From Leucoraja ocellata (Eukaryota), in NCBI GenBank assembly GCA_036785375.1, contig JAWMAR010000361.1:2232001-2296000 (forward strand): 64,000 bases of DNA. The letters are read 5' to 3'. Below, one piece after another: positions 12,967 to 55,881 of the stretch. A program made the translations under genes and the position numbers. Under the pieces are notes generated by a model. It made no database searches. It worked only from the letters and a program-made list of their open reading frames with translations, and had not been told where the DNA came from. Every line of letters begins with the position of its first letter. Position 1 is the first letter of the stretch.

Positions 12967-13140
12967 GAGTGTAGGAAGGAACTGCATAAGCTGGTTTTCA
13001 CCGAAGATAGACACAAAATGGGGTAGAATCCCCGGAGAGAAGGAATGGAGAAGGGTCTCGACCCTGAAATGTCACCCATTCCTTCTCTGCAGAAAGGCTG
13101 TTTGTCCCGCTGAGTTTCTCCAGCATTTTATGTCTATTTG
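12967..13140. mobile_element. Short Penelope-derived element with inverted halves and 13-bp TSD
   Basis: catgtctgatttt at 12954-12966 and 13141-13153; contains aagggtctcgaccctgaaatgtc. Confidence 0.8.
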
Positions 13141-15325
13141 CATGTCTGATTTTCAATTGCCCTGCTGACACCAGCAGGATTTCTGTCAGATTTCAGTGTC
13201 AGATGGTATCATTCGTTGTGTAATGAATCACATTGCATGGCAGAGGAATTTGGACCATGCTCTCCTGGGGTCATAGATCACAGATTAGTCCCTCAATAAC
13301 ATGGCTTTAATTGGGCAACTCTATTTCTGGAGGTCTACAGGTGAGAATAATAGTTATCTACATCTTTGGAGGTTCATCCTACACTGAAATGTTTCTTTGA
13401 CAGACTTTCTACTGCCTTTCCCCAAGCCCATGACCTGTAGTTGACCCTCCCCTGAAATCCCTCTGCTCGGCCATGTCTTATAACCCTTTACATCCTGACT
13501 CCGGTGCTCTTAATTCCAGATTTCTCTCCTTCATTTGTGATGGCCTCATCCCCGATACCCCCTCCCACAATTTCTCCAGCCTCCTCCAAATCCCAACAAC
13601 TTTAACTGGCTGGTGGACAATTCAACAATTTGTGAGCTGTGCTCAGGCATCCATTCCTTCACCCAATAACTTCCTTCCTGCAACTATTGGCCTAACATCC
13701 CAACCATGACTTTAGGTGAATTCCTGGTGATACATTTTCATACGGAAGTAAATGTAATGCTGATTAACGTGGAACTAACATCCCACACCCAAGTCTCACG
13801 TTCAGTTTCATGCAGTGGGACTAGACCCCAAACTAGTTTCTAATCCGAAGCACATTTGTCCTTCCAACAAATCCGTTGGAATGTATTGGAGTTAATTGGC
13901 ATATCTAAAAGGGAATATTATTCTTACCTATTATCTTGGCCCATTTATGCTCTACTCAGTACTGAAGTTATATAAATGTATGTAATAGAGTTACCAGTAA
14001 AATGTTACATATACTTTCTTTCATTCAGCCCCACTAGAGACATAAGAGCAGGAACATAACATGAGCCACAGTGGACTTACTGAAATTCAAGTAGATTATA
14101 ATTCACCTGCAACAAAACTCTATTAACGTATCATGTTTCGATACCGAAGATATATTTCAATATCCTTCAGCTCTCTATCATAACAAAATACTATTGATCT
14201 TAGCCTTGGAAAGGTCATTTGATGCAACAATCTTAATCATTTTGGGAAGATATCTATCATTTTTGGTGTCTCCCAATTATATTCCCAGACATCGTCTAAG
14301 TTCCAGACACAATATTTCTAAATCTTATCTAATATTTCTGATTAGAGATAATATTTTTTCTATTTAATTTTTCTCTACACATTGCTAAATCATTCTGCCA
14401 CTTTTCTTAATCATTTTTATGAAATCATCTCATGATTTTCTTAGCTCTTTTATAAGCTAACCCTTTTAGTCTAAATCATTCTGTTATGTTAAGGCCAATG
14501 TAACCTTCCTTGTATCAAATGGCAAGGACTGAATGGAGTGCCACTGACACTGGACTTACTAAAGCTCTATTTAGTAAAGCATCCTCCTCAGTTTATTCCA
14601 GGCTCTTTGGCAGGATGTTTTGTTCTTTAATTTTTGTAACTGGGCACTTAAGCCCCTAAGCATCTCCCTCTCACCATTTAGAAAATAATGGAAAAATATA
14701 CGACCACATACTTTCCTATACTGAACTGCATCAGACATGGCAGTCCTCATTCATTCATCCCAAGTATCACTCAATATAATTTTCTCCTGCCATCATTCCC
14801 ATTTTTTCCACTCCTGGCATTGTCAGTAAATGTTGTATGTATATACCTGTTTATTCATCCTCATTTTAAACATAGAATAGTACAGCACAGGACCATAGCC
14901 TACAATTTCCATGCTGCCCATTATGGCATGTTAAATTAATCGTCCCTGCCTGCGTGTGACCTATATTCCTTCACTCCCTGCATATCTATGTGCCTATCTA
15001 AAAGCTTCTTAAATGCCACCACTGTCTCTGCCTCTACCACCACCTCTGGTAGAGCTCACTGTGTAAAAAAACATCTCCTTCAAACTTTGCCCCTATTTTA
15101 ATAAGGGATAGGCCATTTAGGACCGAGATGAGCATAAAATGGTTACATTCAGCAGGTGGTAAGCATTTAGAATTTTCTTCCGTGGAAAGACAAGATACAT
15201 TGAGTTCATTCTGAATTAAAATGATTATTTTTCTGGACATGACAATATAAAGAGATTATACTGAGATGAAAGATTAGCAAAGATTTTTTGAATGGATCCT
15301 TTGAGGATATCATGCTTTAAAGGGA

Positions 15326-15420
15326 CTGAAGAAAGGTCTTGACCCGAAACATCACCATTTAGTTTTCTCCAAAGATGCTGTTTGACCCACTGAATTACTC
15401 CAGCATTTTGAGTCTGCCTT
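15326..15420 (+). mobile_element. Short Penelope-derived element with hammerhead motif
   Basis: ctgaagaaaggtcttgacccgaaacatc...gaattactccagcatttt. Confidence 0.75.
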
Positions 15421-18125: not shown

Positions 18126-18671
18126 GAAGACTGGAAATGTCAGGAGCCGGTGGTAGACCTGCTGTGAGGTGGGTTGTGTGGGCTGCTTTCGCAAGTCGAA
18201 CACCATTATCCCCACGGGTGAAAAAATGTTGATTAACACTCTGCCCCGGTAAAAAAACTACAAACATGCAGTGAGAAGTAGCAGTGAATAACTTACGAAT
18301 CTCCCACCCAAACAAGATTCAGAAGACAGCGTCTCCCTGAGCTGAGTGGGTTTTAATACCTGTAATTGATGAGACAAAAAGAAAGGGAATAAATTGAATA
18401 CATTTCTCCTTTAAATCTTTAAATTTTATTGCAATTTGCGATCAGGTTATTAGTAAACTCGATGATGAGAAGTTATTCAGTTTACTAATAATCTGATCCC
18501 AAAATACAATTAAAGTTCTTTGCTAGTTTTCTTTTCCGTAAGGTATTCTTAAAACCAATTGTTTTTGTTTGAGTTTTGTTTTTCCCGAGCATCTCCTTAG
18601 TTATTGAGGTCAAATTTGTTTGATTGCTCTCCCTTATGTGATTTTATAACATTCAAGGTGCTAAATTAATA

Positions 18672-18759
18672 TCTGAAGAAGGGTCTCGACCCGAAACGTC
18701 ACCTATTCCAGAGGTGCAAACTAACCCGTTGAGTTACTCCAGCATTTTGTGTCTATCTT
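18672..18759 (+). mobile_element. Short Penelope-derived element with 13-bp TSD
   Basis: tgctaaattaata (18659-18671) / tgctacattaata (18760-18772), one mismatch. Confidence 0.8.
18673..18700 (+). ncRNA. Minimal type I hammerhead ribozyme motif (best copy in the window)
   Basis: CTGAAGA-a-GGGTC-tc-GACCC-GAAA-CG-TC: conserved core boxes CUGANGA and GAAA, helix II, palindromic ACGU helix III, GUC triplet. Activity not demonstrable from sequence. Confidence 0.65.
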
Positions 18760-19052
18760 TGCTACATTAATAACAAATTGTTGTTGAATGTATTTTGGCG
18801 TATTGGCAGAATTGCATGATATTACATTTCAATTATAAATTTTTTGATGGACATTAAATGGACAAACCACGTATATTTATGTTGTTCCACTGAAACCCAA
18901 CACAACCGTAAGGATAAACATCTCATCTGTCTATAAACCTTGAACAACATTGAATTCAATAATTTCATAAACTGAGTCTTTCCAGTTAATGTCAGAACTT
19001 TGGGTATATGAGTGGTGTCAGTGGGGTAGAGATCAGGCTTGGCATTTTGGGA

Positions 19053-19235
19053 AGATAGACACAAAAATCTGGAGTAACTCAGTGGGTCCGACAGCAACTC
19101 TGGAGAAAAAGAATAGATGACATTTTGGGTCAAGACCCTTGTTGAGACTTCTGAAGAAGGGTCTTGACCCAAAGCGTCACCTATTCCTTTTCTACAGAGA
19201 TGCTGTCTGACCCACTGAGTTACTCTAGTTTTTAT
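19053..19235. mobile_element. Head-to-head pair of short Penelope-derived units
   Basis: Minus unit ending gggtcaagaccctt (about 19140) abuts plus unit starting ctgaagaagggtcttgacccaaagcgtc (19151). Confidence 0.75.
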
Positions 19236-20274
19236 TGCCTATTTTGCAGTATAGTGATCAATTTGTAATTTTAGCTCAGAACCTAAACTGCTGGAGTAAC
19301 TCAACGGGTCAGGCATCATATCTGGAAGACGTATCTGGAAGCTGGAGAGGGAGGTGGGGTGTGGGTCAAAACCTCGCAGGTGATATGTGGATACCGGAGA
19401 AGGAGTTTTGATCGGCAGGTGGATGGGCAAAGGCTAGAGATGAAAATAAGTCAACATGGTGGCAAAGGAGGACCAAAGGAGACAAGTAAGGACAGAATGG
19501 AGATAAGAAATAAAGATGTAGAGGAGCAAATGCAAATCCAGAGGGTGGGATCAAGGAGGAACTGGGGAGGGGGAGGGGTGGTTGTGGGAAAGAGGTCCGA
19601 ATAGTTGGAGAAATGCGTGTGCAATGGATGGGGGGGGGGGGGGGGTGTTTAGCAAAACATTTTTTCTCCATATGTTATCTGATCTGCTGGATCTTTCCTG
19701 GATTTCAGGTTTCTAACAACTATGTGTTATTCTGTTCCAATGTAGCATTTTGTTTTGTTTCTCCGCTGTTCTTCCTCCACTCGCACCTCCTCCAGACGAA
19801 TCAGCTCACCATCCTTCACTACTCTCTCAGCCGAAACCAATCCGATTCATTTATATTCTGTTTGTACCCTCCCTGTCACAAAAGCTGCCTTTGTACTCCC
19901 CACCTCCTCCTTCACAACTTAAAAACAAGTCTGTTTTCTAAATATTCCCATTTCCGAAGGGAAATTGTTAGCCGGTTTTCTCTCAACAGATGTTGCAGCA
20001 TTGTCTCTATTTTCTTATTGTAGATTGAATTTTAATTCCAGATGTATATTTCATGCAATTAAATGAATTAAAATCTAGTCCATACAGTAAGGAGAATTCC
20101 CCCCTCTTCTCAAATAATGATGTATATGCATTGGTGCTATTGCAGCAGAGAAGGAGCCAACGTTTGACGTATTCTGAAGCATTTGAGAATGAAACAAGAG
20201 AGGCTGTAAATTTGAGGTGAAGACAGAAAAGACTGGAAATATTTCATGTAGCACCAGTGGAAAGACAGAGTAAA

Positions 20275-20790
20275 TTCACAAGGTGCTGGAGTAACTCAGC
20301 GGGTCAGGCAGCATTAGTGGTGGATATGGACAGGTGGCGTTTCAGGTTGGGACAAAACCTGGCAAGCGATAGGTGGATACAGGTGAGGGGGCTTAAATAG
20401 CAGAAGGGTGGGCCCAAAGCTAGAGATGAATCAGAGGCAAAAGCATGGAACAGAATGTGGGAAGAGAAGGGACTTTGTGCTGCCCCCACCTCTCTTTTCA
20501 GCTTTCTCCCCCTACTGCCAATCAATATGAAGAAGGGTTTAAGAAGGAACTGCAGATGCTGGAGAATCGAAGGTACACAAAAATGCTGGAGAAACTCAGC
20601 GGGTGCAGCAGCATCTATGGAGCGAAGGAAATAGGCAACGTTTTGGGCCGAAACCCTTCTTCAGAATATGAAGAAGGGACCTGATATGAAACGTTTGCAG
20701 ATCCATGGCCCCCAGAGATACTGCCTGGCTCGCTGAGTTACTCCAGCACTTAATGCTTTATTTGTGTAATCTAGCATCTGCAGTTCTTTA
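20275..20790. mobile_element. Older Penelope-derived element with a younger copy (20538-20664, minus) nested inside
   Basis: 14-bp TSD aatatgaagaaggg at 20524-20537 and 20665-20678. Confidence 0.75.
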
Positions 20791-22469
20791 TTACCTCCAT
20801 CGGAGTTAATATTTTGGTTGAAAGACTTTCCAAGGTGTTTATCATTTTCTGATTTTCTTCTGAAAACATCTCAGTCCAATATAGTTTTTTGGCACCACTC
20901 TTTCTATCCTGCATCAGAGTGTTGGTTGGGGGATGGGATTTGAAATCTGACATTAGCTTAGTCAGGTTAATATGCTAGAGTGTTAGCACGCAACAAAACC
21001 TTTTCACTGTACCTCAGTACGCGTGACAATAAAAAAATTGAACGTGTAAAAATTGAAATCTGTGTTTGTACTTTCACCTGACAAAGAACAGAATCTAAAG
21101 CAAATAATAGCCATGGCAATGAAACAATGATTTTAGACACCTCTTAGATTTATCCTAACGCATTGTAAGGGAAGTGGATCAGATATGAATGCAAGCGGTG
21201 GACTTCTCCATGGTATTAGATTGCTCTGGTTGCCCATAGCAACCTTACTACCTACAAATAGGTTCAAATTTAAAAATGTACTGCAATCAAGTAAGGACTT
21301 AAAACAGATTAATTGAAAACTAAATTTCAAGTAGGCTGAGAAATAGGATTCTAATAATGCAACATGGTGACACATCTATAATGACCACTGTGGGGGGACC
21401 CATTTTATGAGCGACATGTACAATAAGGTTTTTCTCTACTGTGGCTGCAAGTCTGAATTATTCATTGAAGTGACCTGGACATTTTGGAGGTCAAACTCAC
21501 AGAATGAGTCATAATGTTAGTTTGGGGCTTTCAGTAGAACAAACAGTACTCAAGTTGAGATCATCGAAAGTGAGTTGCTTTTTAAAAAATGCCTTTTGTA
21601 TCAACTGTAGCTGGTTTTGGTTTTATTTACTTCTTCCTATTAGATGTGGTTGAGATTTATCAATGGTAAAAGCTTAATTGCACACCCCACATCTTGCTGT
21701 AGTTATTGCAATAAGACAGAGTGTTCAGGACTGCAAGATCTCCAGTGAGGCAGTATCATGATTTAATTTGGGGGCTGTGTGTTGAACAATACATATCTTT
21801 CATGTCCTTCTGCTTCTCTCAATAACATTGACTCAATGCTTATGACTGTCCTCTAATGCAGCTTGATAGATGAAAGGAAGCTAAGTTACATCTAAGTGAA
21901 ATCATAGTATCACTAATCCTATAGAGTAAATTTGATACAATAGGGACAGAGGTCCAGGAATAAGTAATTAGCACTTTGAGACACTCTGATCGTACTTAGG
22001 GTCATGACTGATCTGTGACTGTCTGCATTGTTGGCTTCAATTAACAACAATCTCAGGTTTAGAATGAACAAATAACTCAGTATCGACTGAATGACCGTTC
22101 CGAACTTCGATCACCTATGTGCGCAGAAGTTTCTCGCAAGTGAAAGGTCTTTAATTATAAGACAATGCCGCCCAGTCTGAGACTCTGTGGCAGGATTATG
22201 CTTGGAAAGTGCATTGAAGCATAGCCGATGCAATACAATGCCCATTGGCAGCGTTGGATGGCAACGGTTTTGGTCTCTGTCCCACCATGTTGAAATCCAG
22301 CCGAGATAAAATGGGCAGTGCAGATTTTTGGATTTGAAATCACAATATTTGATGTTCTCTCAGAGCCTCAGGCTAGGTCAAATAGGGGGATTGGGAGAGG
22401 GCAGGTGTATTCGGTTATGATGCCCGGGGATTGGCATGGGAACTGAGTGTAATATTTGTGATCAGACCA

Positions 22470-26208: not shown

Positions 26209-26338
26209 CTGAAGAAGGGCCTCGACCCTAGACGTCACCCATTCCTTCTCTCCAGAGATGCTGTCTGTCCCGCTGAGTTACACCAGCATTTTGTGTCTAT
26301 CTTCGATTTAAACCAGCATCTGCAGTTCATTCCGAAAC
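26209..26338 (+). mobile_element. Short Penelope-derived element
   Basis: ctgaagaagggcctcgaccctagacgtc...accagcatctgcagttc; flanks cagaaagtgtgc / cagaaaatgtgc. Confidence 0.78.
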
Positions 26339-27261
26339 AGAAAATGTGCCCTCTATTACCTGTGGGCAAGGCCACAGAGGAACCGCTACACAAAGAATAA
26401 CACACTATTATGTGTTCAAAAGCAAGATAGCTCAGTAATAAGCTCTGTTCTTGTGATTTGTTATCTCCTAAATTTGATGTACTGTTGCCTGGTGCCTGAT
26501 TTCAAATGACAGGTTGTCCTACATATCAAACAATACCTTCCAGGCATCTATTGGCCATGTTTTTTTCCCCCTCACTTCCCAAAGGCTACATTGTGCTGTT
26601 CAAGTATTGCTGCACTTTTTCACCAGGTGTCAGACCAAATGGAGCAGATTCCAGCCACTGCAACAGATATAAATTAGTTGTGGTGCTTCTGAATAATGTA
26701 AAACGCATCATGTTCCTACCGAATTACAATTATTTTGCATGTGCTCCAGTAAAATATACAACTGCGAAAACCAAGTCATCTGCAAGATTTCATTTTAAAT
26801 CTTTTCGAGGAGCAAGTTACTTATTAAGCCATTTCTTGGGTCACCTGTGATAACTATGCAGAAAAATAATGATGTTAATTGCTGAAATTGGCTGAATTTA
26901 TCATTCAAGGTCATGCCAAATATATTGCAAATTATATCTAAAATCTGCTGAATACAACGATGGGAATAAAGTAGGTATCTTGCGGTGAACAAAGCTTTTA
27001 TTTTTAATCGTTCTTTGTTTCTGGTATAAGCATTACTTTTCCATTGGGGTTAATTAACTGAACCTGTTTAAGATTTTCTGAGAAGCCTATTATCTTGGAA
27101 TGACTTTGATTTGCCAGGCAAAAACCTCTGCGTTTACGAAGAAAATCAAAGATGCACATGAAGAAAAACTAAACAACAACTTGTATTTACAGTACGTAAG
27201 GCGTTTGTGGGAGTAACACCAATCACTTGTTTTGCTGAGTTGTTTGGATGTCAAACACTGT

Positions 27262-32711: not shown

Positions 32712-33545
32712 GTTCAAGTTCAAGTTCAAGTTTATTGGCATGTGTCCCTGATAGGACAATGAAGCTCTTGCTTTGCTTCAGCACACAGAACATAATAGGC
32801 ATTGACTACAAAAACACATGAATAAATAAACTGATAAAGTGCAAAATGACAGATAATGGGTTATTAATGTTTTGTCCGAGCCAGGTTTAATAGCCTGATG
32901 GCTGTGGGGAAGTAGCTATTCCTGAACCTGGTCGTTGCAGTCTTCAGGCTCCTGTACCTTCTACCTGAAGGTAGCAGGGAGATGAATGTGTGGCCAGGAT
33001 GGTGTGGGTCTTTGATGATACTGCCAGCCTTTTTGAGGCAGCGACTTCGATAAATCCCCTCGATGGAAGGAAGGTCAGAGCCGATGATGGACTGGGCAGT
33101 GTTTACTACTTTTTGTAGTCTCTTCCTCTCCAGGGCGCTCAAGTTGCCGAACCAAGCCACGATGCAACCAGTCAGCATGCTCTCTACTGTGCACCTGTAG
33201 AAGTTAGAGAGAGTCCTCCTTGACAAACCGACTCTCCGTAATCTTCTCAGGAAGTAGAGGCGTTGATGTGCTTTCTTGATAATTGCATCAGTGTTCTCGG
33301 ACCAGGAAAGATCTTCAGAGATGTGCACGCCCAGGAATTTGAAGCTCTTGACCCTTTCAACCATTGACCCGTTGATATAAACGGGACTGTGGGTCCCCAT
33401 CCTACCCCTTCCAAAGTCCACAATCAGTTCCTTGGTTTTGCTGGTGTTGAGGGCCAGGTTATTGTGCTGGCACCATATGGACAGTTGCTCAATCTCTCTT
33501 CTATACTTGGACTCATCCCCATCAGTGATACGTCCCATGACAGTA
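32712..33545 (-). mobile_element. Rex1/Babar LINE, 5'-truncated
   Basis: Open 224-aa minus ORF 32864-33538 (NLALNTSKTKELIVDF...FKFLGVHISEDLSW...LLPSGRRYRS); (ttgaac)n tail. Confidence 0.9.
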
Positions 33546-34006
33546 ATTTAGAATACTATGATTTATTTAGAACTGTACATTAGCTATTAGTGGAATGCTT
33601 GTGTTTTACATTGCAGTTTGTTGTTGTATGATAGTTATTAGTAGTATTATTTCTTGCTTAAGTACAATTTTGCTTGCGTGTTCCGACCTCATTTGCCTTT
33701 GTTTAGATTGAAGTGTTTTGAGTGTAGAAGATCTGCTGGTGAAGTGGGTTTGATCCGTTGCATCTTAAACTGAGATTGCTTACTGACTCTAAATTATTTA
33801 CCGGTTGGAAAGCTTGTGCGAATTCTGTGTGTGAGACTGGTGTGAAATAATTTTGGGTAGGGTACCCGGAGTTGAAAGGAGATATTTATTGTGGGAGAGA
33901 CTTACTGGCGTATCGAAGAACTTTAGGCCATTGTTTGTGAACAAACTTGTTAAGTCTTGTGAGTGAAGTGTGAATCGTTTGGATACTGTGTCCACTGTTA
34001 GTAACA

Positions 34007-35775: not shown

Positions 35776-36114
35776 GTATCATGTTCGGCATGGACATTGT
35801 GGGCTAAAGGGCCTGTTCCTACATTGAACTTCTCTATGTTCTATGTTCTTTGCAAATTGTCCCTCAATTTATTAGCTATTCATATTTACAGTAAATGTAA
35901 ATTGTTCGTGAAGACCACAATCCTATGTCTTACTTTGAGTGAGTCAGTGTCACATTTCTGTTTGATAATACCTCTGGTAAGTAGCTTGAGATGCGTTATT
36001 AGGAATGGAGGCCTTTTATAGTTTTGTTTTTGCATTGAAATAAAAGACTCAACAACTTCGCTAAACACAGGCTTTTGAGTAAAAAAATTCAGCATCAAAC
36101 AAGAAAATCAGGGT

Positions 36115-36272
36115 ACACAAAATTGCTGGAGAAACTCAGCGGGTGCAGCAGCATCTATGGAGCGAAGGAAATAGGCAACGTTTCGGGCCGAAACCCTTCT
36201 TCAGACGGATGGGGGGTGGGGGGGAGAAGGAAGGACGACTAATGGGGGGTGGGGGGGAGAAGGAAGGCGATC
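36115..36272 (-). mobile_element. Short Penelope-derived element with hammerhead motif (36177-36204) and 11-bp TSD
   Basis: Reverse complement ctgaagaagggtttcggcccgaaacgtt; aaaatcagggt at 36104-36114 and 36273-36283. Confidence 0.82.
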
Positions 36273-36896: not shown

Positions 36897-37297
36897 TTTT
36901 ACCAAGCCAATTAACCTACAAACCTAAGGTACACAAAAATGCTGGAGAAACTCAGCGGGTGCAGCAGCATCTATGGAGCGAAGGAAATAGGTGACGTTTC
37001 GGCCCGAAACGTCACCTATTTCCTTCGCTCCATAGATGCTGCTGCACCCGCTGAGTTTCTCCAGCATTTTTGTGTACCTTCGATTTTCCAGCATCTGCAG
37101 TTCCTTCTTGAACACAACCTACAAACCTGTACGTCTTTGGAGTGCGGGAGGAAACTAAAGATCTCGGGGAAAAAACCCAGGCATGACATGGGGAGAACGT
37201 GCAAACTCCGCACAGACAGAAACTGTAGTCTGGATCGAACCCGGGTCTGTGGCTCTGCATTCGCTGTAAGGCAGCGGCTTTACTGCTGCACCATCGT
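36897..37297 (-). mobile_element. V-SINE-type SINE interrupted by a Penelope-derived insertion
   Basis: accaagccaattaacctacaaacct | aacctacaaacctgtacgtctttggagtg...ggatcgaacccgggtct...ctgctgcaccatcgtg. Confidence 0.85.
36926..37115. mobile_element. Palindromic Penelope-derived insertion with 13-bp TSD
   Basis: Perfect 77-bp inverted arms 36926-37002 and 37004-37080; aacctacaaacct at 36913-36925 and 37116-37128. Confidence 0.9.
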
Positions 37298-37434: not shown

Positions 37435-39405
37435 AGGTCCTGATGTGTATCAGGATAGACAGATCTCTCGAGCTTGATCAAATATATCTGAAGACATTGT
37501 GGGTTGCTAGAGAGGAAATTGCAGGTGCCCTGGCTGAGAGTTATGAGTCGTCATTAAATACAGGTAAGGTGCCAGAGGGTGGAGAAGACTAGCGAATGGC
37601 AAATGTTATGCCTCCATTCAAAAAGGTTTGTAGGGAAAAGCTTGGGAACTACAGGCCAGTGAGCATAAGATCTGTGGTCAGAAAGCAACTGGTAAGTAAT
37701 CTAAGGGATAAGACATACATGCATATAAAGGGATAAGACATACATGCATTTAGATAGACAAAGGCTGATTAAGGATACTCAGCATGGTTTTGTACAGGGG
37801 AGATTGTGTCTCACGAATCGGATTACGTTTTTTGAAGATGTTATCATTGTATATATACAACATATAATCCACCGCCATTTTCGCCACCTCCAACGGGATC
37901 TCACCACTGGCCACATCTTCCCATCTCCCCCCCTTTCAGCTTTCCGCAGAGACTGTTCCCTCCATAACTCCCTGGTCAATTTGTCCCTTCCCACCCAAAG
38001 CACCCCCTCCCCTGGTTCTTTCACTTGCAACCGCAGGAAATGCTGCACTTGCCGCTTTACCTCCCCCCCCAGACTCCATCCAAGGACCCAAGCAGGATTT
38101 CCAGGTGAGGCAGAGGTTCACCTGCACCTCCTCCAACCTCATCTACCGTATCCGCTGTTCCAGGTGTCAACTTCTCTACATCGGTGAGACCAAGCGCCAG
38201 CGATCGTTTCACTGAACACCTCCACTCAGTCCGTGCTAACCAATCTGATCTCCCGGTGGCTCAGCACTTCAACTCCCCCTCCCATTCCGAATCTGACCTT
38301 TCTGAACTGGGCCTCCTCCATTGTCAGAGTGAGGCCCAGCGCAAATTGGAGGAACAGCACCTCATATTTTCCTTAGGTAGTTTACACCCCAGCGGTATGA
38401 ACATTGACATCTCTAATTTCAGATAGTCCTTGCTTTCTCCCTCCTTCCCCTCCCCCTTCATAGCTCTCCCACAAGCATACCGTCTCCACCTTTTCCTTTC
38501 TTCCCCCCTCCCCCCCGACATCAGTGTGAAGGATGGTCTCGACCCGAAACGTCGCCTATTCCTTCGCTCCATGGATGCTGCCTCACCCGCTGAGTTCCTC
38601 CAGCATTTTTGTCTACCATTGTATATATGGATTTCAGCAAGACATTTCACAAGATTCTGCATGGTAGGTTGCACTGGAAGGTTAGACTGCATGGTATCCA
38701 AGGAGAGATTGCTGAATGGATAGACAATTGGCTTCATGGAAGGAAGCAGAGAGTGATAGTGAAGGTTATTTTTTGGACTGGAGGCCCGTGCCTCAGGGTT
38801 TGGTGCTGGGCCCATTGCTATTTGTCATCTATATTAATGATTTGGATGAGAATGTACATGGCATGATTAGCAAGTTTGCAGATGACACAAAAAGTGGATG
38901 GTATTGTAGATAGTGAAGATGGATGTCAATAATTGCAGCAGGATTTTGATCGGTTGGGCAGGTGGGCTGAGGGAAGGCTGATAGAATTCAATACAGAGAA
39001 GGTGCGAGGTGTTGTGTTTTGGGACGTCAAACATGGGCAGAACCTACACAGTGTATGATAACGGTCTGGGTAGTGTTGTAGAACAGACAGATCCAGGAGT
39101 GCATGTACACAGTTCCTGCAAAATTAGGTCACAGGTAGATAGGGTGGTTAAAAAGGCTTTCGGCACATTGGCCTTCATCAGTCAGTATTGAGTATAGAAG
39201 TCAGGCAGTCACATTTAGAATATTGTGTTCAGTTTTGATCGCCATGTTGTAGTAAAGGTGTCAAGCTGGAAAGGGTGCAGAGAAGATTTACGAGGATGTT
39301 GCCAGGATCGAGGGCCTAACCTGGAGGGAGAGGTTGACCTTGTTAGGACTTTATCCCTTGGAGTGCAGGAGGACGAAGGGTGTGCAGAAATCATGAAAGG
39401 AATAC
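37435..39405 (+). mobile_element. Old CR1 ORF2 (RT region) remnant
   Basis: Frameshifted [39 protein letters not shown]...SKFADDTK. Confidence 0.85.
37857..38616 (+). mobile_element. Penelope-like element 3' fragment: GIY-YIG endonuclease plus terminal repeat, 12-bp TSD
   Basis: FTCTSSNLIYRIRCSRCQLLYIGETKR / RFTEHL...PVAQHFN...RKLEEQHLIFSLGSLHPSGMN; decayed hammerhead at about 38527-38554; cattgtatatat at 37845-37856 and 38617-38628. Confidence 0.88.
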
Positions 39406-40130: not shown

Positions 40131-40269
40131 TCATACATTACAACCAAAAGTTTCAGTTTCTGTTGGCATTTAGAGAGCTATTAGTTGCATGACCTGTGAA
40201 GTTCTTGGTGCATGACTAACAACGGGCAAACATCAGTGGTGTCCATGTGTACCAATTTCCTGATGTGAT

Positions 40270-43200
40270 GCTGTCGGGGAGGATTTAAACTAATGTGGCA
40301 GGGGGATGGGTACAAGAGCAGAGAGGCAGGGGGGTGTAAAATGAAGGTAGAAGCAATAGGTAGCAAGGTGAAAAGTAAAAGTGGCAGGCAGACAAAACCA
40401 GGGCAAAAATCAAAAAGGGCCACTTTTCAACATAATTGTATAAGGGGTAAGAGCGTTGTAAAAACAAGCCTGAAGGCTTTGTGTCTCAATGCAAGGAGTA
40501 TTCGTAATAAGGTGGATGAGTTGAACGTGCAGATAGCCATTAATGATTATGATATAGTTGGGATCAAGGAGACATGGCTCCAGAGTGACCAAGGCTGGGA
40601 GCTGAACATCCCGGGATATTCAATATTCAGGAGGGATAGAGAGAAAGGAAAAGGAGGTGGGGTAGTGTTGCTGGTTAGAGAGGAGATTAACGCAATGGAA
40701 AGGAAGGACATTAGTTTGGAGGATGTGGAATCGGTATGGGTAGAGCTGCGAAACAATAAGGGGCAGAAAACGCTGGTCGGTGTTGTGTACAGGCCACCTA
40801 ACAGTAGTAGTGAAGTTGGGGATGGCATCAAACAGGAAATTAGAAATGCTTGCGACAAAGGCAAAGCAGTTATAATGGGTGACTTCAATCTACATATAGA
40901 TTGGGTGAATCAAACTGGCAGGGGTGCTGAGGAAGAGGATTTCTTGGAATGTATACGGGATAGTTATCTAAACCAACATGTAGAGGAACCAACGAGAGAG
41001 CTGGCTATTTTAGACTGGGTATTGAGTAATGAGGAAGGGTTAGTTAGTAGTCTTGTTGTGCGTGGCCCCTTGGGCAAGAGTGACCATAATATGGTTGAGT
41101 TCTTCATTAGGATGGAGAGTGACATTGTTAATTCAGAAACAATGGTTTTGAACTTAAAGAAAGGTAACTTTGAGGGTATGAGACGTGAATTGGCCAAGAT
41201 TGACTGGCAATTAATTCTAAAAGGGTTGACGGTGGATATGCAATGGAAGGCATTTAAAGACTGCATGGATGAACTACAAAAATTGTTCATCCCAGTTTGG
41301 CAAAAGAATAAATCAGGGAAGGTAGTGCATCCATGGATAACAAGGGAAATCAGGGATAGTATCAAAGCAAAGGATGATGCGTACAAACTAGCCAGAAAAA
41401 GCAGCATACCGGAGGACTGGGAGAAATTCAGAGACCAGCAGAGGAGGACGAAGGGCTTAATTAGAAAAGGAAAAATGGATTATGAAAGAAAACTGGCAGT
41501 GAACATAAAATCTGACTGCAAAAGTTTTTATAGATATGTGAAAAGAAAGAGATTAGTTAAAACAAATGTAGGTCCCTTGCAGTCAGAAACAGGTGAGTTG
41601 ATCATGGGGAACCAGGATATGGCGGACCAATTGAATAACTACTTTGGTTCCGTCTTCACTAAGGAAGACATAAATGATCTGCCGGAAATAGCAGGGGCCC
41701 GCGGGTCAAAGGAGGTGGAGGGATTGAGTGAAATCCAGGTTAGTCGGGAAGTGGTGTTGGGTAAATTGAATGGATTAAAGGCCGATAAATCCCCAGGGCC
41801 AGATAGGCTGCATCCCAGAGTACTTAAGGAAGTAGCTCCAGAAATAGTGGATGCATTAGTAATAATCTTTCAAAACTCCTTAGATTCTGGAGTAGTTCCA
41901 GAGGATTGGCGGGTAGCAAACGTAACCCCACTTTTTAAGAAGGGAGGGAGAGAGAAAACGGGGAATTACAGACCAGTTAGCCTAACATCGGTAGTGGGGA
42001 AACTGCTAGAGTCAGTTATTAAAGATGGGATAGCAGCACATTTAGAAAGTGGTGAAATCATTGGACAAAGTCAGCATGGATTTACGAAAGGTAAATCATG
42101 TCTGACGAATCTTATAGAATTTTTCGAGGATGTAACTAGTAGCGTGGATAGGGGAGAACCAGTGGATGTGGTGTATCTGGACTTCCAGAAGGCTTTCGAC
42201 AAGGTCCCACATAAGAGATTAGTATACAAACTTAAAGCACATGGCATTGGGGGTTCAGTATTGATGTGGATAGAGAACTGGCTGGCAAACAGGAAGCAAA
42301 GAGTAGGAGTAAACGGGTCCTTTTCACAATGGCAGGCAGTGACTAGTGGGGTACCGCAAGGCTCAGTACTGGGACCCCAGCTATTTACAATATATATTAA
42401 TGATCTGGATGAGGGAATTGAAGGCAATATCTCCAAGTTTGCGGATGACACTAAGCTGGGGGGCAGTGTTAGGTGTGAGGAGGATGCTAGGAGACTGCAA
42501 GGTGACTTGGATAGGCTGGGTGAGTGGGCAAATGTTTGGCAGATGCAGTTTAATGTGGATAAATGTGAGGTTATCCATTTTGGTGGCAAAAACGGGAAAG
42601 CAGATTATTATCTAAACGGTGGCCGATTGGGAAAGGGGGAGATGCAGCGAGACCTGGGTGTCATGGTACACCAGTCATTGAAGGTAGGCATGCAGGTGCA
42701 GCAGGCAGTAAAGAAAGCGAATGGCATGTTGGCTTTCATAGCAAGAGGATTTGAGTATAGGAGCAGGGAGGTTCTACTGCAGTTGTATAGGGTCTTGGTG
42801 AGACCACACCTGGAGTATTGCGTGCAGTTTTGGTCTCCAAATCTGAGGAAGGACATTATTGCCATAGAGGGAGTGCAGAGAAGGTTCATCAGACTGATTC
42901 CTGGGATGTCAGGACTGTCTTATGAAGAAAGACTGGATAGACTTGGTTTATACTCTCTAGAGTTTAGGAGATTGAGAGGGGATCTTATAGAAACTTACAA
43001 AATTCTTAAGGGGTTGGACAGGCTAGATGCAGGAAGATTGTTTCCGATGTTGGGGAAGTCCAGGACAAGGGGTCACAGCTTAAGGATAAGGGGGAAATCC
43101 TTTAAAACCGAGATGAGGAGAACTTTTTTCACACAGAGAGTGGTGAATCTCTGGAACTCTCTGCCACAGAGGGTAGTTGAGGCCAGTTCATTGGCTATAT

Positions 43201-43375
43201 TTAAGAGGGAGTTAGATGTGGCCCTTGTGGCCAAGGGGATCAGAGGGTATGGAGAGAAGGCAGTAAGGGATACTGAGTTGGATGATCAGCCATGATCATA
43301 TTGAATGGCGGTGCAGGCTCGAAGGGCCGAATGGCCTACTCCTGCACCTAATTTCTATGTTTCTATGTTTCTATG
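40270..43375 (+). mobile_element. CR1 LINE, 5'-truncated at the end of ORF1, ORF2 complete
   Basis: APE-RT ORF, 3' UTR and (tttctatg)x3 tail at 43352-43375; no clear TSD seen. Confidence 0.95.
40293..43295 (+). CDS. CR1 ORF2: APE endonuclease plus reverse transcriptase
   Basis: LNARSIRNK, ETWL, VYRPP, GDFN, SDHN (APE); KSPGPD, NYRPVSLTS, QHGF, DFQKAFD, GVPQGSVLGP, FADD, RPHLEYC (RT); 1000 codons without a stop; 1-nt loss near the end alters only the last few residues. Confidence 0.93.
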   Translation: MWQGDGYKSREAGGCKMKVEAIGSKVKSKSGRQTKPGQKSKRATFQHNCIRGKSVVKTSLKALCLNARSIRNKVDELNVQIAINDYDIVGIKETWLQSDQGWELNIPGYSIFRRDREKGKGGGVVLLVREEINAMERKDISLEDVESVWVELRNNKGQKTLVGVVYRPPNSSSEVGDGIKQEIRNACDKGKAVIMGDFNLHIDWVNQTGRGAEEEDFLECIRDSYLNQHVEEPTRELAILDWVLSNEEGLVSSLVVRGPLGKSDHNMVEFFIRMESDIVNSETMVLNLKKGNFEGMRRELAKIDWQLILKGLTVDMQWKAFKDCMDELQKLFIPVWQKNKSGKVVHPWITREIRDSIKAKDDAYKLARKSSIPEDWEKFRDQQRRTKGLIRKGKMDYERKLAVNIKSDCKSFYRYVKRKRLVKTNVGPLQSETGELIMGNQDMADQLNNYFGSVFTKEDINDLPEIAGARGSKEVEGLSEIQVSREVVLGKLNGLKADKSPGPDRLHPRVLKEVAPEIVDALVIIFQNSLDSGVVPEDWRVANVTPLFKKGGREKTGNYRPVSLTSVVGKLLESVIKDGIAAHLESGEIIGQSQHGFTKGKSCLTNLIEFFEDVTSSVDRGEPVDVVYLDFQKAFDKVPHKRLVYKLKAHGIGGSVLMWIENWLANRKQRVGVNGSFSQWQAVTSGVPQGSVLGPQLFTIYINDLDEGIEGNISKFADDTKLGGSVRCEEDARRLQGDLDRLGEWANVWQMQFNVDKCEVIHFGGKNGKADYYLNGGRLGKGEMQRDLGVMVHQSLKVGMQVQQAVKKANGMLAFIARGFEYRSREVLLQLYRVLVRPHLEYCVQFWSPNLRKDIIAIEGVQRRFIRLIPGMSGLSYEERLDRLGLYSLEFRRLRGDLIETYKILKGLDRLDAGRLFPMLGKSRTRGHSLRIRGKSFKTEMRRTFFTQRVVNLWNSLPQRVVEASSLAIFKRELDVALVAKGIRGYGEKAVRDTELDDQP

Positions 43376-46410: not shown

Positions 46411-47005
46411 TCACATGATCTAATGATCTCATGATCATTCATGGTATACTTCAATTAGATTAAACTTCAAACTGGCAAGTTCTCGTTTAATCTTACTATT
46501 AATTATGGTTGATGGAAGTTGGTTCAGAACACAGTCAGGCTGCACTGGTTGACCAATCCTTCATGGTTGAATAGCCATCTTGTATAGTTTCCAATGGAAG
46601 ATCTATCAAGTCCCCAGGGAATAATATTCCATCAAAGGCTAAATGGTCCAAGAAAGCAAGTGAAAGGGTGACCATTATAAGGATTAAGATGTTGTGCCAT
46701 TCAAAGTTTTCAATGTATGAATCACAATGTGCTTTCACAGTTTCAGGGCAGTGCATCCATAGTTAAGAGCAATGTGTACCAAAGGCCAAGCCGGCGTTTA
46801 ACACAGTAATGTGTTGTCAAAGTGATTATTCAAGAAAATACATCATATTTCAGCTATGTCAGTGAAGCTTAATAATTTATTTCTCTTAAGTCACGACGTT
46901 ACATCTGTTCACAAGGCATTAGACTAATGCAAAAATCGGCACAGGAACGAAAATAGAATTGGAAGCACTTTACGTTTTGTCAAAAAAAAAAACAAGTCTT
47001 CAATG

Positions 47006-47690
47006 GACAGACACAAAATGATGGAGTAATCATCAGGACAGGCGGCATCTCTGGAGAGAAGGAATGGGTGACGTTTTGGGTCGAGACCCTTCTTCAGACT
47101 GAGAGTCTGGGGAGAAGGAGACACAGAGATAATGGGCCTGAACCATTATGGCGACTTTATATGCAACTGCCAGCGTCTAATTTTAATGAAATTCACACTA
47201 CGACAGCAAGTACGACGACCTATGACAGCTAAAGTCGTCGCCACTGTTGCAGAACATGTTGAACATTTTTGTGGCAATCGCCGGTAGTCGCCCTAAAAAA
47301 ATTGCCTAAGTGGGACAGGACAATTAGTCAGTGCAAGGTGTGAGAATGAGACATCAAAGGTGATGATGCTCAAGGAAAATGGAGAATAGATCATTGTTAG
47401 CTGGTGGAAGGTGACAGCGAAGCAAACAGAGATAAGCTTTAATCAAAGGGACAGTCTGACTGGTCGGAGAACTGGGAAGGGGGAGGGATGGAGAGAGATG
47501 GAATGCAAGAGTTACTTGAATTTAGAGAAGTCAATATTCATACTACTGGGGTGTAAGATGCCCAAGCGAAATATGAGGTGCTGTTCCTCTAATTTGCACT
47601 GGGCCTCACTCTGATAGTGGAGGAGGCCCAGGACAGAAAGGTCAATGTGTGAATGGAAGGGGCAGTTAGAGTGTTTAGCATCTGGGAGAT
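47006..47690 (-). mobile_element. Penelope-like element 3' fragment (end of GIY-YIG plus terminal repeat with hammerhead motif at about 47070-47097)
   Basis: 47510-47690 is the reverse complement of 38245-38425; gacgttttgggtcgagacccttcttcag. Confidence 0.8.
47133..47323. mobile_element. PIF/Harbinger-type MITE inside the Penelope fragment
   Basis: taa|tgggcctgaaccattatggcga ... ttgcctaagtgggacaggacaa|tta. Confidence 0.6.
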
Positions 47691-49229
47691 CAAGTGTTCA
47701 GTCTTCGAGAGATGATGGAAAATTCATTATGTTTAAGACATCTTTTAGATATGTGCATGTATCGATTCTACTTTTGACAGATTCTAGGTGTCAGATTGCT
47801 AGTTTTACTTCCATTCTTCTATCATCAAGTTACATAAGTAAATAAACCTATTTATTTGATCTTCTAATGCATATTTACAGCCACCAAGGGAGTCCTGCCC
47901 TCACTGTACAGTTGCTTTGCTTGCAGTCCTCAGTTCTTAGAAACCATTTACCTAACCCTCACATAAACGCTGGAGATATGCCTTGAGCAAAAGTAAACAT
48001 CAAAGTTCACGTACCAATGCTTTCGTTGGGGGTGTGTAATTATTTCCAAGAAAGAAATCCATGGATTATAATTGCACTTCTGGGATAACAAGTGCATTCA
48101 TTAAACACTTCTATGCTGTGAAAGACATGGGGTGTTGTGTAATGTGCATGTACAGTGGCAGAAGCGCTGAAAGAATCAATGAATACATATCATTAGCATT
48201 ACAGTCGTCACTCTTTTTGGGTATGAGAGGTGAAGTGAGATTGTAATTACTTCGCTAACTGGGAGGAATTCGATTTGACATTGAGGTACAACAGGTTTGT
48301 TTGAAAGAATACAAGTAACGTTTCATGCAATTATATTAAAGAGCAACGACTTGATCATATCCTGGGAGATAAGAAAGATCTTCCTCAAATACCACACATG
48401 ATGGTCTTGGTAATAACTGAAGATGCACTTCAGCTGGACCTTTCATTTTTCCAGATCTATTACTGGATGTATTTTAGATGTTCCAGGTCCGGCAGCTTTT
48501 TTTTTAATCAGTTCCCTGTGTTTTGTTCATCTTTGTAACTAGCATTTTATCAGGGTTCTACCCAGGGGCTTGACAGAGCTCCAGACAACCTAGATGACCC
48601 TATTTCATTATAAACAAATCCAGCACAAAGCAAAACACTAAGTAATGGAGTTTTACCAATTGACACTTGTGTACTTTCGCACAGAGAGTGGTGGGGATAT
48701 GGAGCGAGCTGCCAAGGGAAATACTTGAGGCAGGGACTATAACATCAATTAAAAGACAACTGGACAGATACATGATTAGAAACGGTTTAGAGGCATATGG
48801 AAGATAGACACAAAATGTAACTCGGTGGGATGGGCAGCATCTCTGGAGAGAAGGAATGGGTGACATTTTGGGTGACATTTTGGGCCTCTCGACCCAAAAC
48901 ATCACCCATTCATGAAGCATGAAGCCTTTGTTGAGAAGCTGATGCATTTTAGGTCAAACACTGCCCAGCTTCACACGTGGAGGTCCCCAAGCCCTGACTA
49001 CTGCCCATATTTCCCCAAGTTCTTCAGATGGAAGGGAATCTATGCAATTACAAGAGGAGTATGACCTTTATGCAGTTTAGTTTGGAGACGCATGATGGTT
49101 TCAGATATCCTACTCATTAAGAAGAACTAGAACAACAGATGGTTGCTGATGGTTTGTTGGCAAATTTAGCGGGCAGTTTGTAAACGGCGCAGTTATGCAA
49201 ACAGATGAATGAGGAATTAATCCAGTTTT

Positions 49230-49472: not shown

Positions 49473-49638
49473 TAGATAGACACAAAATGCTGGAGTAACT
49501 CAGCGGGACAGGCAGCATCTCTGGGGAGAAGGAATGGTTGACGTTTCTCTCCAGAGATGTTGCCTGTGCCGCTGAGGTACTCCGGCACTTTGTGTCTTTC
49601 TTCAGTTTAAACCAGTATCTGCAGTTCCTTCCAACACA
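49473..49638. mobile_element. Hairpin-form short Penelope-derived element
   Basis: agacacaaaatgctggagtaactcagcgggacaggcagcatctctgg ... ccagagatgttgcctgtgccgctgaggtactccggcactttgtgtct. Confidence 0.8.
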
Positions 49639-50624
49639 CATGATGTTTGATTTGGGGGTATTAGCTACAGGTAGCGGTTGGACAGACTTGAATTGTTTTC
49701 TCTCGAGGTTATGGGAGACCTGATAGAAGGCATAGATTGGGTGGAGTTTAAGAATCGTTTTTTCCCCAGTATGGAGACATCAAATACCAGAGGGCATAGC
49801 TTTAAGGTGTGAGAGGCAAAGGTTAAAGCAAGACAATTTTTTTACACAGAGGGTGGTGAGTGACTGGAACAGGGTGACAGGAGTGGTGGTTGAAGCAGAC
49901 ACGTCACTGGCATTTAAACGATTTTTGTTTCGACATATGGATATGGTGGGAATGGAGGGATATGCATTACATATAGATAGATAGAAATTATGTTGGCATG
50001 ATGTTTGGCACAAACATTGTGGGCCGAAGAGCCAGTCTTTGTGATGCACTGTTCTATGTCCCATGTCTAAAATACTAATGAAGCTATCCTAAACTATTTA
50101 AAGTCATTTCCTCATCTGGTAATTCAAACAAATTATGAAACTAGATTGAGGAAGATTAGTTTTAGGTGTCCGATCGCAGCAAAAAACACCTTAGCTGTGT
50201 AGTTAGCTCACCAAAGGTCAAACCTGTTTAGTTGAGATGAAAAAACCATCGCGACACGACCGACTCGGATTAAATGGCTTATTAACGACTTCATAATTTT
50301 CATTGTTGGGCACAGGTTTTAAATGAAATGACATGAATAAAACTGTCTGACTCAGTGGATAAGTAGTACTGTTTGCCCTGCCCTGATCCTCATTTGAGCA
50401 GGTATGCGTCGCACAGCTCAAAACCATCCATAATTTGGAAGTAATTAGGGCTAAATTAGAATTCACTCAGAGATGTCAGAAGAACAATTTGAGGAGAGGA
50501 CATTCATCAAGATTTTGCAGATTTATATTATTTGCACTCTGCTCTAGTGGTTTATTATTATTTAATTATAAATGGCTGTATAAAGCACAACCTTCAACTC
50601 ACAAGCAACCATTTTCCATTAGAT

Positions 50625-50753
50625 GGGCACAAAAAGCTGGAGTAACTCAGCGGGGACAGGCAGCATCTCTGGAATGTTGCTTGTCCCGCTGAGTTACTCC
50701 AGCATTTAGCGTCTATTTTAGGTGTAAGCCAGCATCTGCAGATCCTTCCTACA
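50625..50753. mobile_element. Hairpin-form short Penelope-derived element with 15-bp TSD
   Basis: cattttccattagat at 50610-50624 and 50754-50768. Confidence 0.8.
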
Positions 50754-53255: not shown

Positions 53256-53536
53256 GAGACCAGCCTTAAAATGCAGTCACACATATTGGAGCTAAATGTT
53301 GTGGAACAATTTGAAAAAAAAAATCTGTTTTTTAAGTCACACTAATTAAGCATGCCACTGCCTTTTAAACAGAAGATTTTAAAAGCACACAGGAGGATTC
53401 AATGTCTGCACTGTCCATGGTGATAATTTGCAGATTTTTCTTCTTGGAAGTGTGCATTATGTTTTAGGTCAATGGGTTTGTTATAGCTTGAGTACGTTTA
53501 AAGCCTTTCATTAAAACCAAACTGGTAATAATTGAT

Positions 53537-53635
53537 TGACACAAAAAGCTGGAGTAACTCAGCGGGACAGGCAACATCTCTGGAGAGAAGGAATGGGTGA
53601 CGTTTCGGGTTGAGACCCTTCTTCAGACCTAATTA
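53537..53635 (-). mobile_element. Short Penelope-derived element with hammerhead motif (53599-53626) and 12-bp TSD
   Basis: Reverse complement ctgaagaagggtctcaacccgaaacgtc; gtaataattgat at 53525-53536 and 53636-53647. Confidence 0.85.
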
Positions 53636-55770: not shown

Positions 55771-55881
55771 GGCTCTACGGGAAGGATTCAGGCACCAGCC
55801 ATGGCTATCGCAGCGGAGGACCTGACCTGCACAACTTCATCTCTTCAGGATTTGTGACACTAGGGCGAGGACATCTCAAGG
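55771..55881 (+). CDS. SHISA6: Internal coding exon (exon 3, cassette-type, phase 1-1) of Shisa6/CKAMP52
   Basis: Acceptor gctgttcctcttgctaacag|GG, donor AAGG|gtacag, 111 bp. Encodes GLYGKDSGTSHGYRSGGPDLHNFISSGFVTLGRGHLK, matching recalled mammalian GHYGKDAYRSGGPDLHNFISSGFVTLGRGHTK. Confidence 0.92.

Follow-up and report, generated by a model that had tools for sequence, protein, structure and literature searches.

The repeats scattered through this 64,000-nucleotide stretch of Leucoraja ocellata DNA (hereafter the window) are most probably short 3'-end insertions of a Penelope-like element (PLE), likely of the Neptune clade, each made up of pLTR sequence with a hammerhead motif. The copies were likely inserted by the nuclease and reverse transcriptase of the parent element, have decayed, and likely do not cut the shisa-6 pre-mRNA. 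The focal copy, at 18672-18759 on the + strand, is a complete insertion starting 1 nt before C3 of its core, since it is flanked by two 13-bp repeats with one mismatch between them.

Results

The motif recurs at high density in the window

Allowing at most three mismatches, we found the 28-nt core motif at 12 places in the window and at none in 100 dinucleotide shuffles. These near-exact cores lie on the + strand at 6774, 10504, 15326, 18673, 19151, 26209 and 38526, and on the − strand at 7981-8008, 20637-20664, 36177-36204, 47070-47097 and 53599-53626; the focal core (18673-18700, +) matches the motif exactly. The original prediction had listed 13 sites, and the one absent from the near-exact set, at 2641 (+), holds a core that is decayed and cut off. 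An assembly gap of 540 N (2747-3286) lies near the pair at 2533-2664.

We then searched with a profile built from 13 arms, using the reversed window as control. The search returned 36 arms in the window, split evenly as 18 per strand, whereas the reversed window had 0. Because nine of the adjacent arm pairs stand head-to-head, the 36 arms amount to 27 loci in 63,460 non-N bases, or about one per 2.4 kb. The very high copy number proposed earlier was borne out, with more copies than had been listed.

A search with Rfam hammerhead models, which had been suggested as a check, gave no match at any core in the window; the sole hammerhead row was HH9, below threshold (E 0.64) and lying over a tail. 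The Rfam miRNA and plastid matches in the window are head-to-head hairpins of the repeat, all under the gathering score.

All loci lie in introns of a shisa-6-like gene

Shisa-6-like proteins match the 49 residues encoded at 11186-11332, at 100% in rays, 98% in a skate and 90-94% in sharks, so that the host is a cartilaginous fish, most likely a batoid. Using tblastn with shisa-6-like proteins, we placed one coding exon upstream of the focal copy (approximately 11170-11327, +) and another downstream of it (approximately 55771-55881, +). The focal copy sits in the 44-kb intron between these two exons, the + strand is the sense strand, and all 27 loci are intronic, as had been predicted for SHISA6. 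Pfam missed the shisa exon, and its identity came via homologues.

Other elements were also seen in the window. An uninterrupted frame of 1008 codons at 40269-43295 (+), in sense within the shisa-6 intron, encodes APE endonuclease and RT domains; it is an apparently intact, probably young LINE ORF2, which we take to be CR1/L2-like. Many fragments of similar elements occur elsewhere in the window. Two open frames, at 1106-1717 (+, 203 codons) and 32864-33547 (−, 227 codons), resemble the C-terminus of LINE ORF2, and both match Pfam ALKBH8_N.

The units have the anatomy of EN+ PLE insertions

The units measure about 95 nt where the core is followed by about 66 nt, about 130-135 nt where an optional tail of about 35 nt follows this segment, and 150-200 nt where they form head-to-head pairs. 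According to BLAST, the tail is on a single arm in four head-to-head pairs and on both arms of a fifth tailed pair, whose arms come from different subfamilies. Across the whole window the copies are solo or head-to-head insertions, and no head-to-tail array of the unit was found within it. Direct repeats of at least 12 bp flank 4 of the 20 loci tested, compared with 7 of 2000 random pairs, and repeats of at least 7 bp flank 7 of 20 loci, compared with 200 of 2000. The observed target-site duplications (TSDs) are 7-15 bp long, and 13 of the 20 loci have none of 7 bp or more. The features of an EN+ PLE insertion, namely 5' truncation, a head-to-head inverted copy, a tail at one end and a TSD, were all found. 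By eye, we assigned the copies to four sequence groups of differing age, 84-98% identical to their own consensus.

The focal insertion is an 88-nt solo pLTR stub with an 8-nt internal deletion and no tail. Its left TSD (18659-18671, +) is identical to the right one (18760-18772, +) at 12 of 13 positions. Its core is intact, with CUGAAGA, an extra A, a 4-bp helix II closed by a CUCG loop, GAAA and the ACGU palindrome; helix I has 1 bp, and the predicted cut falls after the C at 18700 (+).

Three further copies have intact cores, all antisense to the gene. Two are solo insertions, at 7914-8012 (−; 7-bp TSD, helix I of 2 bp) and 53533-53628 (−; 12-bp TSD, helix I of 3 bp). The third, at 36111-36260 (−; upstream boundary approximate), is a younger B variant with a UUCG loop that keeps the upstream pyrimidine tract. 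Four other solo sense copies have damaged cores. The copy at 6772-6867 (+) has its catalytic bases and a broken G10.1-C11.1 pair; at 15324-15420 (+), both the G10.1 pair and the ACGU palindrome are broken; at 10499-10587 (+), U16.1 is lost; and the tailed copy at 26209-26340 (+) is broken at G12-A13.

Among the head-to-head pairs, that at 36926-37113 is near-perfect, with the joint inside helix II, a tail on one arm and a 13-bp TSD. At 19052-19244 both arms reach the 5' edge of the core and both cores are broken. The pair with arms of different subfamilies, both tailed, lies at 20537-20793 and possibly represents two insertions. Tails on one arm are also present at 50621-50752, which lacks any core and has a 15-bp TSD, and at 49474-49637, where the joint is at GAAAC. 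The pair at 12975-13138 has a 13-bp TSD, and its left arm, missed by the profile, was found by BLAST and by eye. Such pairs (36926-37080, 50621-50718 and others) form long near-perfect pre-mRNA hairpins on either strand, which give the sub-threshold Rfam miRNA matches and would be dsRNA substrates for editing or silencing.

The unit forms the 3' end of a Penelope-like element

Judged from its sequence context, the short unit is the 3' end (pLTR) of a PLE with a Cys linker plus a C-terminal GIY-YIG nuclease. A long 3' fragment at 37868-38619 (+) comprises a linker with CX4CXXC, a frameshifted GIY-YIG nuclease ending at 38426, a pyrimidine-rich 3' UTR and the downstream segment. Its decayed hammerhead (38526-38553, +) lies about 100 nt past the stop, behind a pyrimidine tract ending in CAG, and is followed by about 66 nt more. 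A second long 3' fragment, at 47006-47691 (−), has the identical order of nuclease C-terminus, 3' UTR and hammerhead (47097-47070, with G12 lost). The earlier claims of a Penelope origin, and of the unit as the 3' terminus of both GIY-YIG fragments, hold. In the second fragment an insertion of about 200 bp of another repeat (approximately 47133-47334) splits the 3' UTR, and mapped reads jump from 47132 to 47335.

The frame at 38109-38423 has 647 protein matches at E ≤ 0.001, including proteins of 609 and 813 residues with Pfam RVT_1 and GIY-YIG domains; some of its homologues carry RT, linker and GIY-YIG. The preceding frame aligns to the RT-EN linker of protein P0103 and contains the Cys motif CNRRKCCTC (CX4CXXC). 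Pfam gave no match on the broken nuclease fragment itself, which was identified via homologues. Because the CX4CXXC linker motif marks both Neptune and Nematis (Craig et al. 2021, PMC8557442), and vertebrates are reported with only Neptune and Poseidon among PLEs (bioRxiv 10.64898/2026.07.22.740005), the parent is likely a Neptune-clade EN+ PLE, a clade assignment drawn from linker and nuclease, as the window holds no RT of the element or full-length copy. Four gene models (P0001, P0002, P0003 and P0063) fuse the nuclease C-terminus of the element to host proteins or a LINE RT; the partners are DUF4518, a neuromedin-U receptor, an NYAP protein and a LINE RT, and these fusions are exonisation or annotation artefacts.

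The core corresponds to the published minimal hammerhead of PLEs

By its sequence features, the window motif is the published PLE minimal type I hammerhead. The CUGANGA, GAAA and UH boxes stand in type I order and are invariant across the four group consensuses. Metazoan PLE minimal hammerheads (Cervera and de la Pena 2014, PMC4209133) are likewise type I, with one nucleotide added between positions 9 and 10.1, pairing of G10.1 with C11.1, and a loopless helix III with palindromic 15.2-16.2. They also lie in the pLTR, mostly in solo truncated copies and sometimes in opposite-strand pairs, as here. In the window, the extra A is present in 18 of 20 arms, G10.1 in 17 of 20 and C11.1 in 21 of 28; there is no helix III loop, and the ACGU palindrome is found in all group consensuses. 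The original prediction of a minimal type I hammerhead with a palindromic helix III, working as a predicted dimer, agrees with these features, and the extra A that it had treated as a caveat is in fact a defining feature of PLE hammerheads (PMC4209133). Pairing is kept in both of its helix II variants; the difference between them, U-A to U.G on one side only together with an altered loop, is not a compensatory double change. Helix I is 1-3 bp in the four intact copies, whose fold is not favoured in monomer predictions and whose fold z-scores are unremarkable (−0.17 to 1.45).

None of 11 catalytic columns varies among the four group consensuses, compared with 26 of 77 other columns (Fisher p 0.029). 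The excess conservation of the core over the rest of the repeat, on which the prediction was to be judged, is therefore seen between group consensuses, and it indicates that the source elements kept the catalytic core. Individual copies decay after insertion: the core is fully intact in 4 of the 16 arms spanning it, one sense (18673) and three antisense. G12, which lies in a CpG, is kept in 16 of 29 arms and in 66-72% of mapped reads or contig depth of the four runs described below. Sites outside CpG, 47044 among them, carry the consensus in about 89-97%, and the loss of G12 is what any CpG would show. Non-CpG core positions are kept in 216 of 234 cases, compared with 1512 of 1820 for downstream non-CpG positions (p 1e-4). 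A non-catalytic block, chosen as the best-kept one, is equal to the core (416 of 454), so we read the better-kept core positions as subfamily variation and not as selection after insertion.

We examined pairing across the wider class with a pattern that fixes only the boxes, which yielded 119 metagenome loci and 3 loci of a viral collection, 30 of the 122 being dropped as duplicates or for short flanks. In the 92 distinct motifs, helix I averaged 2.6 bp, compared with 0.71 ± 0.11 when partners were permuted, and helix II extended 2.6 bp past the fixed GG/CC, compared with 0.63. Helix I was 2 bp or shorter in 42 of the 92. The batoid-specific core pattern matched 0 metagenome stretches. The extra-A, ACGU minimal hammerhead is itself common in metagenome contigs, with an estimated 7,000 or so stretches that are likely animal host DNA, and a PLE protein match lies within 600 bases at 11 of the 122 class loci.

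Short units share a sharp 5' end at helix I

The 5' half of the core survives in 19 arms. In 16 of these, homology ends 0-8 nt upstream of C3 and the pyrimidine tract is missing; the other three are long upstream. We classed 47006-47099 as long despite its 5-nt score, since it is continuous with the nuclease fragment. The 5' boundary of the short units is the 5' strand of helix I.

Four runs (X1, X4, X23 and X24) were mapped on 46960-47720. Organism B supplied two RNA runs and a contig set, and organism A a further contig set. The RNA runs are oligo-dT and single-cell libraries from a related species. Depth at the hammerhead was about 8-12 times that at the nuclease end in 4/4 runs (reads or contigs), which points to mostly short copies; it is a ratio that depends on likeness to one decayed reference copy and in which contig depth is not copy number. 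In all four runs the best-supported upstream loose ends fell at 47099-47102, 2-5 nt before C3. The loose letters at −2 and −3 were mostly without consensus, agreement being about 0.32-0.33 in X24, X1 and X4, as for unrelated flanks. Among the best-supported ends, X23 and positions −4 and −5 showed some consensus, which is partly divergence of the reference.

With their 5' ends gathered within 0-8 nt upstream of the core, most copies have the look of run-off cDNAs. A 3' splice site is also suggested by the pyrimidine tract and CAG at the boundary, and in D. virilis the intron of the element ends at helix I (PMC4209133); the downstream segment is, in addition, predicted to be able to fold back on the core. 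We prefer run-off to a splice acceptor or fold-back, since no exon sequence separates the TSD from the boundary at 8012 and 18672. The TCAGT at the boundary is initiator-like when set against the initiator consensus. An Inr-like TCACT has been noted in a rotifer pLTR, and an internal promoter has been shown for D. virilis Penelope.

We found no report of a 5'-end pile-up at the edge of a PLE hammerhead in the literature searched. Not every family of the class has its 5' end at the ribozyme: one metagenome family shares 22-60 nt upstream in 14/14 members; two other metagenome families have a short upstream in most members. We also considered a cap-templated extra G at the 5' junction and do not claim it: two window copies and some loose-end consensuses show a G, but X24 does not.

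The copies offer little scope for cleavage of shisa-6 pre-mRNA

The original prediction held that sense copies place potential self-cleavage sites in the introns of the gene. The threat appears small. One of the 18 sense arms (18673) has an intact core, its helix I is 1 bp, and no intact sense partner exists in the window; G12 is prone to decay, and the arms are balanced between strands (18 sense, 18 antisense), with no bias. When three copies were folded with the downstream segment, a competing hairpin buried the core and the helix II probability was 0.00-0.17. In head-to-head pairs one arm is antisense and the other would be buried in the long hairpin.

In two RNA runs of a relative, 0.26-0.28% of reads belong to the family, and these runs showed no pile-up of read starts or ends at the cut site, the libraries being poor at showing such ends. 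In the single-cell run X23, reads antisense to the element outnumbered sense reads about 7-8 times, at the nuclease end as well as at the hammerhead; X24 was near 1:1 and may be unstranded. The excess in X23 reflects either internal priming by oligo-dT or a real depletion of sense fragments in transcripts. Since it was the same at the nuclease end, and X24 was near 1:1, we did not count it as ribozyme-driven depletion.

Rare joints going back 33-38 nt were seen in X1, X4 and X24 on 47063-47102 and represent head-to-tail duplication of the core alone. One falls exactly at C17 (47070), and such joints are candidates for natural cis-dimers.

Active cleavage of shisa-6 and other long neuronal pre-mRNAs by sense copies, through cis or trans dimers, would be in keeping with the perfect, sense-oriented focal core, with an ACGU duplex between two copies that is predicted to add about −3 kcal/mol, and with the plentiful partners suggested by the read share in the relative. 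Set against the single intact sense arm, its 1-bp helix I, the competing hairpin and the absence of read-end pile-ups in those libraries, we consider it highly improbable, the more so as published minimal hammerheads were inactive as monomers and weak as dimers (PMC4209133) or protein-dependent (PMC11167929). There is no support here for a regulatory ribozyme in shisa-6.

Discussion

Origin of the short copies

We explain the repeats most readily as parent-made insertions. By analogy with an anole PLE, the parent would nick AT-rich DNA and start reverse transcription inside its RNA at either of two positions, which lie about 66 and about 100 nt beyond the ribozyme cut; this pair of internal RT start sites, as in the anole element, would account for the optional tail. 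Reverse transcription would pass through the uncut hammerhead and usually stop at the 5' edge of helix I. The reason we prefer for this stop is that the template RNA would begin at TCAGT and yield run-off cDNA from the 5' pLTR; the alternatives at this position are a 3' splice site, formed by the pyrimidine tract and CAG, and a hairpin made by fold-back. Head-to-head pairs would arise by priming on both nicked strands or by fold-back. The ribozyme would matter only in the tandem transcript of the parent, where two cores would pair through ACGU, probably helped by the protein of the element.

The stubs might instead be a SINE-like, self-propagating non-autonomous family, each with an internal promoter and an RT start site, transcribed from the helix I edge and copied in trans by a Penelope protein. 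The sharp 5' end is what such a family would give, hammerhead ends outnumber nuclease ends about 8-12 to one, and the four sequence groups differ in age. Moreover, the internal promoter of D. virilis Penelope offers a precedent, and cis-sequences of a rotifer pLTR can be mobilised in trans. However, both long fragments end in the same unit as the stubs, and insertion by the anole PLE needs RNA past the RT start sites, which the stub lacks, although this point is extrapolated from another clade. On balance we regard such a family as unlikely. Far less credible still is the reading as non-LTR retrozymes, in which tandem units would be cut by paired hammerheads, circularised and reinserted, and the dispersed copies would be monomers. 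The 2026 preprint (bioRxiv 10.64898/2026.07.22.740005) does describe pLTR-derived retrozymes, including one from a chondrichthyan, and evenly spread monomers in Xenopus, and the mapped runs do contain the rare 33-38 nt head-to-tail joints. Those joints nevertheless contribute very little to depth (tens to about 200 where contigs reach millions, and 6 reads in X24), the window holds no tandem array, and the hammerhead is minimal and not canonical. Nor do the copy ends, about 66 or 100 nt past the core on one side and 0-8 nt ahead of it on the other, have any sequence in common through which a circle could close. The original prediction of a retrozyme-like derivative family is therefore kept in part: the short units do share a sharp 5' end, while the retrozyme-like character is not supported by solo or head-to-head copies with TSDs and a one-sided tail.

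Relation to known systems

The reading as parent-made PLE insertions draws on elements that are well described. Insertions of Neptune and Nematis EN+ PLEs (PMC8557442; PMC3846280) share with those of the window a C-terminal GIY-YIG, a Cys-rich linker, heavy 5' truncation, a head-to-head copy, a 30-40 bp tail at one end and TSDs, theirs being about 8-10 bp. Unlike them, most copies here consist of about 100 nt of pLTR alone, begin sharply at helix I and have no evident microsatellite target. The Poseidon element PAc of Anolis (Frangieh et al. 2024, PMC11167929) has two internal RT start sites downstream of its hammerhead, which explains an optional tail; its uncut RNA is the template, and no RNA-seq reads end at the cut site, as here. 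PAc belongs to another clade and lacks the Cys linker, and its mechanism was shown in vitro, whereas ours would follow by likeness.

Metazoan non-LTR retrozymes (PMC7229834; bioRxiv 10.64898/2026.07.22.740005) are similarly non-coding and pLTR-related, with a type I hammerhead. They differ in having head-to-tail arrays, at least two ribozymes and circular RNA, where the copies in the window are solo or head-to-head. The canonical retrozyme hammerhead has a 6-bp helix I and a loop 1-loop 2 contact (PMC7229834), compared with a helix I of 1-3 bp and no helix III loop here, although the preprint also admits minimal hammerheads in retrozymes.

Among the minimal hammerheads of PMC4209133, helix II and helix I measure 7-8 and 4-5 bp in Schistosoma families, compared with 4 bp and about 2 bp here; in D. 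virilis, helix I is 2 bp. The density in the window is far higher, with 4 intact cores per 63.5 kb compared with about 4,000 and 9,000 motifs per coelacanth and Xenopus genome. Up to 120,000 hammerheads have been reported for axolotl, in a far larger genome. In the passages of PMC4209133 examined, cartilaginous fish receive no mention. Our literature search for ribozymes and Penelope elements in cartilaginous fish found no paper on such a family and one chondrichthyan in the 2026 preprint; a catalogue entry for the family may already exist. Published work covers the ribozyme class, its tie to the Penelope pLTR and the insertion anatomy, so this is not a new system. What is new is a very abundant member of the PLE minimal hammerheads.

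Implications

Were the window typical, about a million loci and about 10^5 intact cores would be expected in a genome of 2-3 Gb, which we take to be the size for a host of this type; the estimate extrapolates from a single intron-rich window. Should rays and skates, as we think unlikely, carry a ribozyme-headed SINE, that is, a pLTR stub of about 100 nt that starts at the hammerhead and propagates itself via the Neptune protein to about a million copies with about 10^5 intact cores, theirs would be a denser hammerhead load than any we found reported for a vertebrate. It would be enough for trans-dimer cleavage of pre-mRNA to shape the orientation of intronic copies, and the sharp 5' end would show where the PLE template RNA starts.

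With parent-made insertions as the preferred reading, the abundance of the family (27 loci in 63.5 kb, and the share of RNA reads given above) makes batoids a strong data set for asking whether PLE hammerheads cut host transcripts. The pile-up of 5' ends at helix I, together with the two 3' ends, is a genome-scale footprint of the PLE template, and it could settle whether short copies arise in the PLE cycle as run-off cDNAs from the 5' pLTR.
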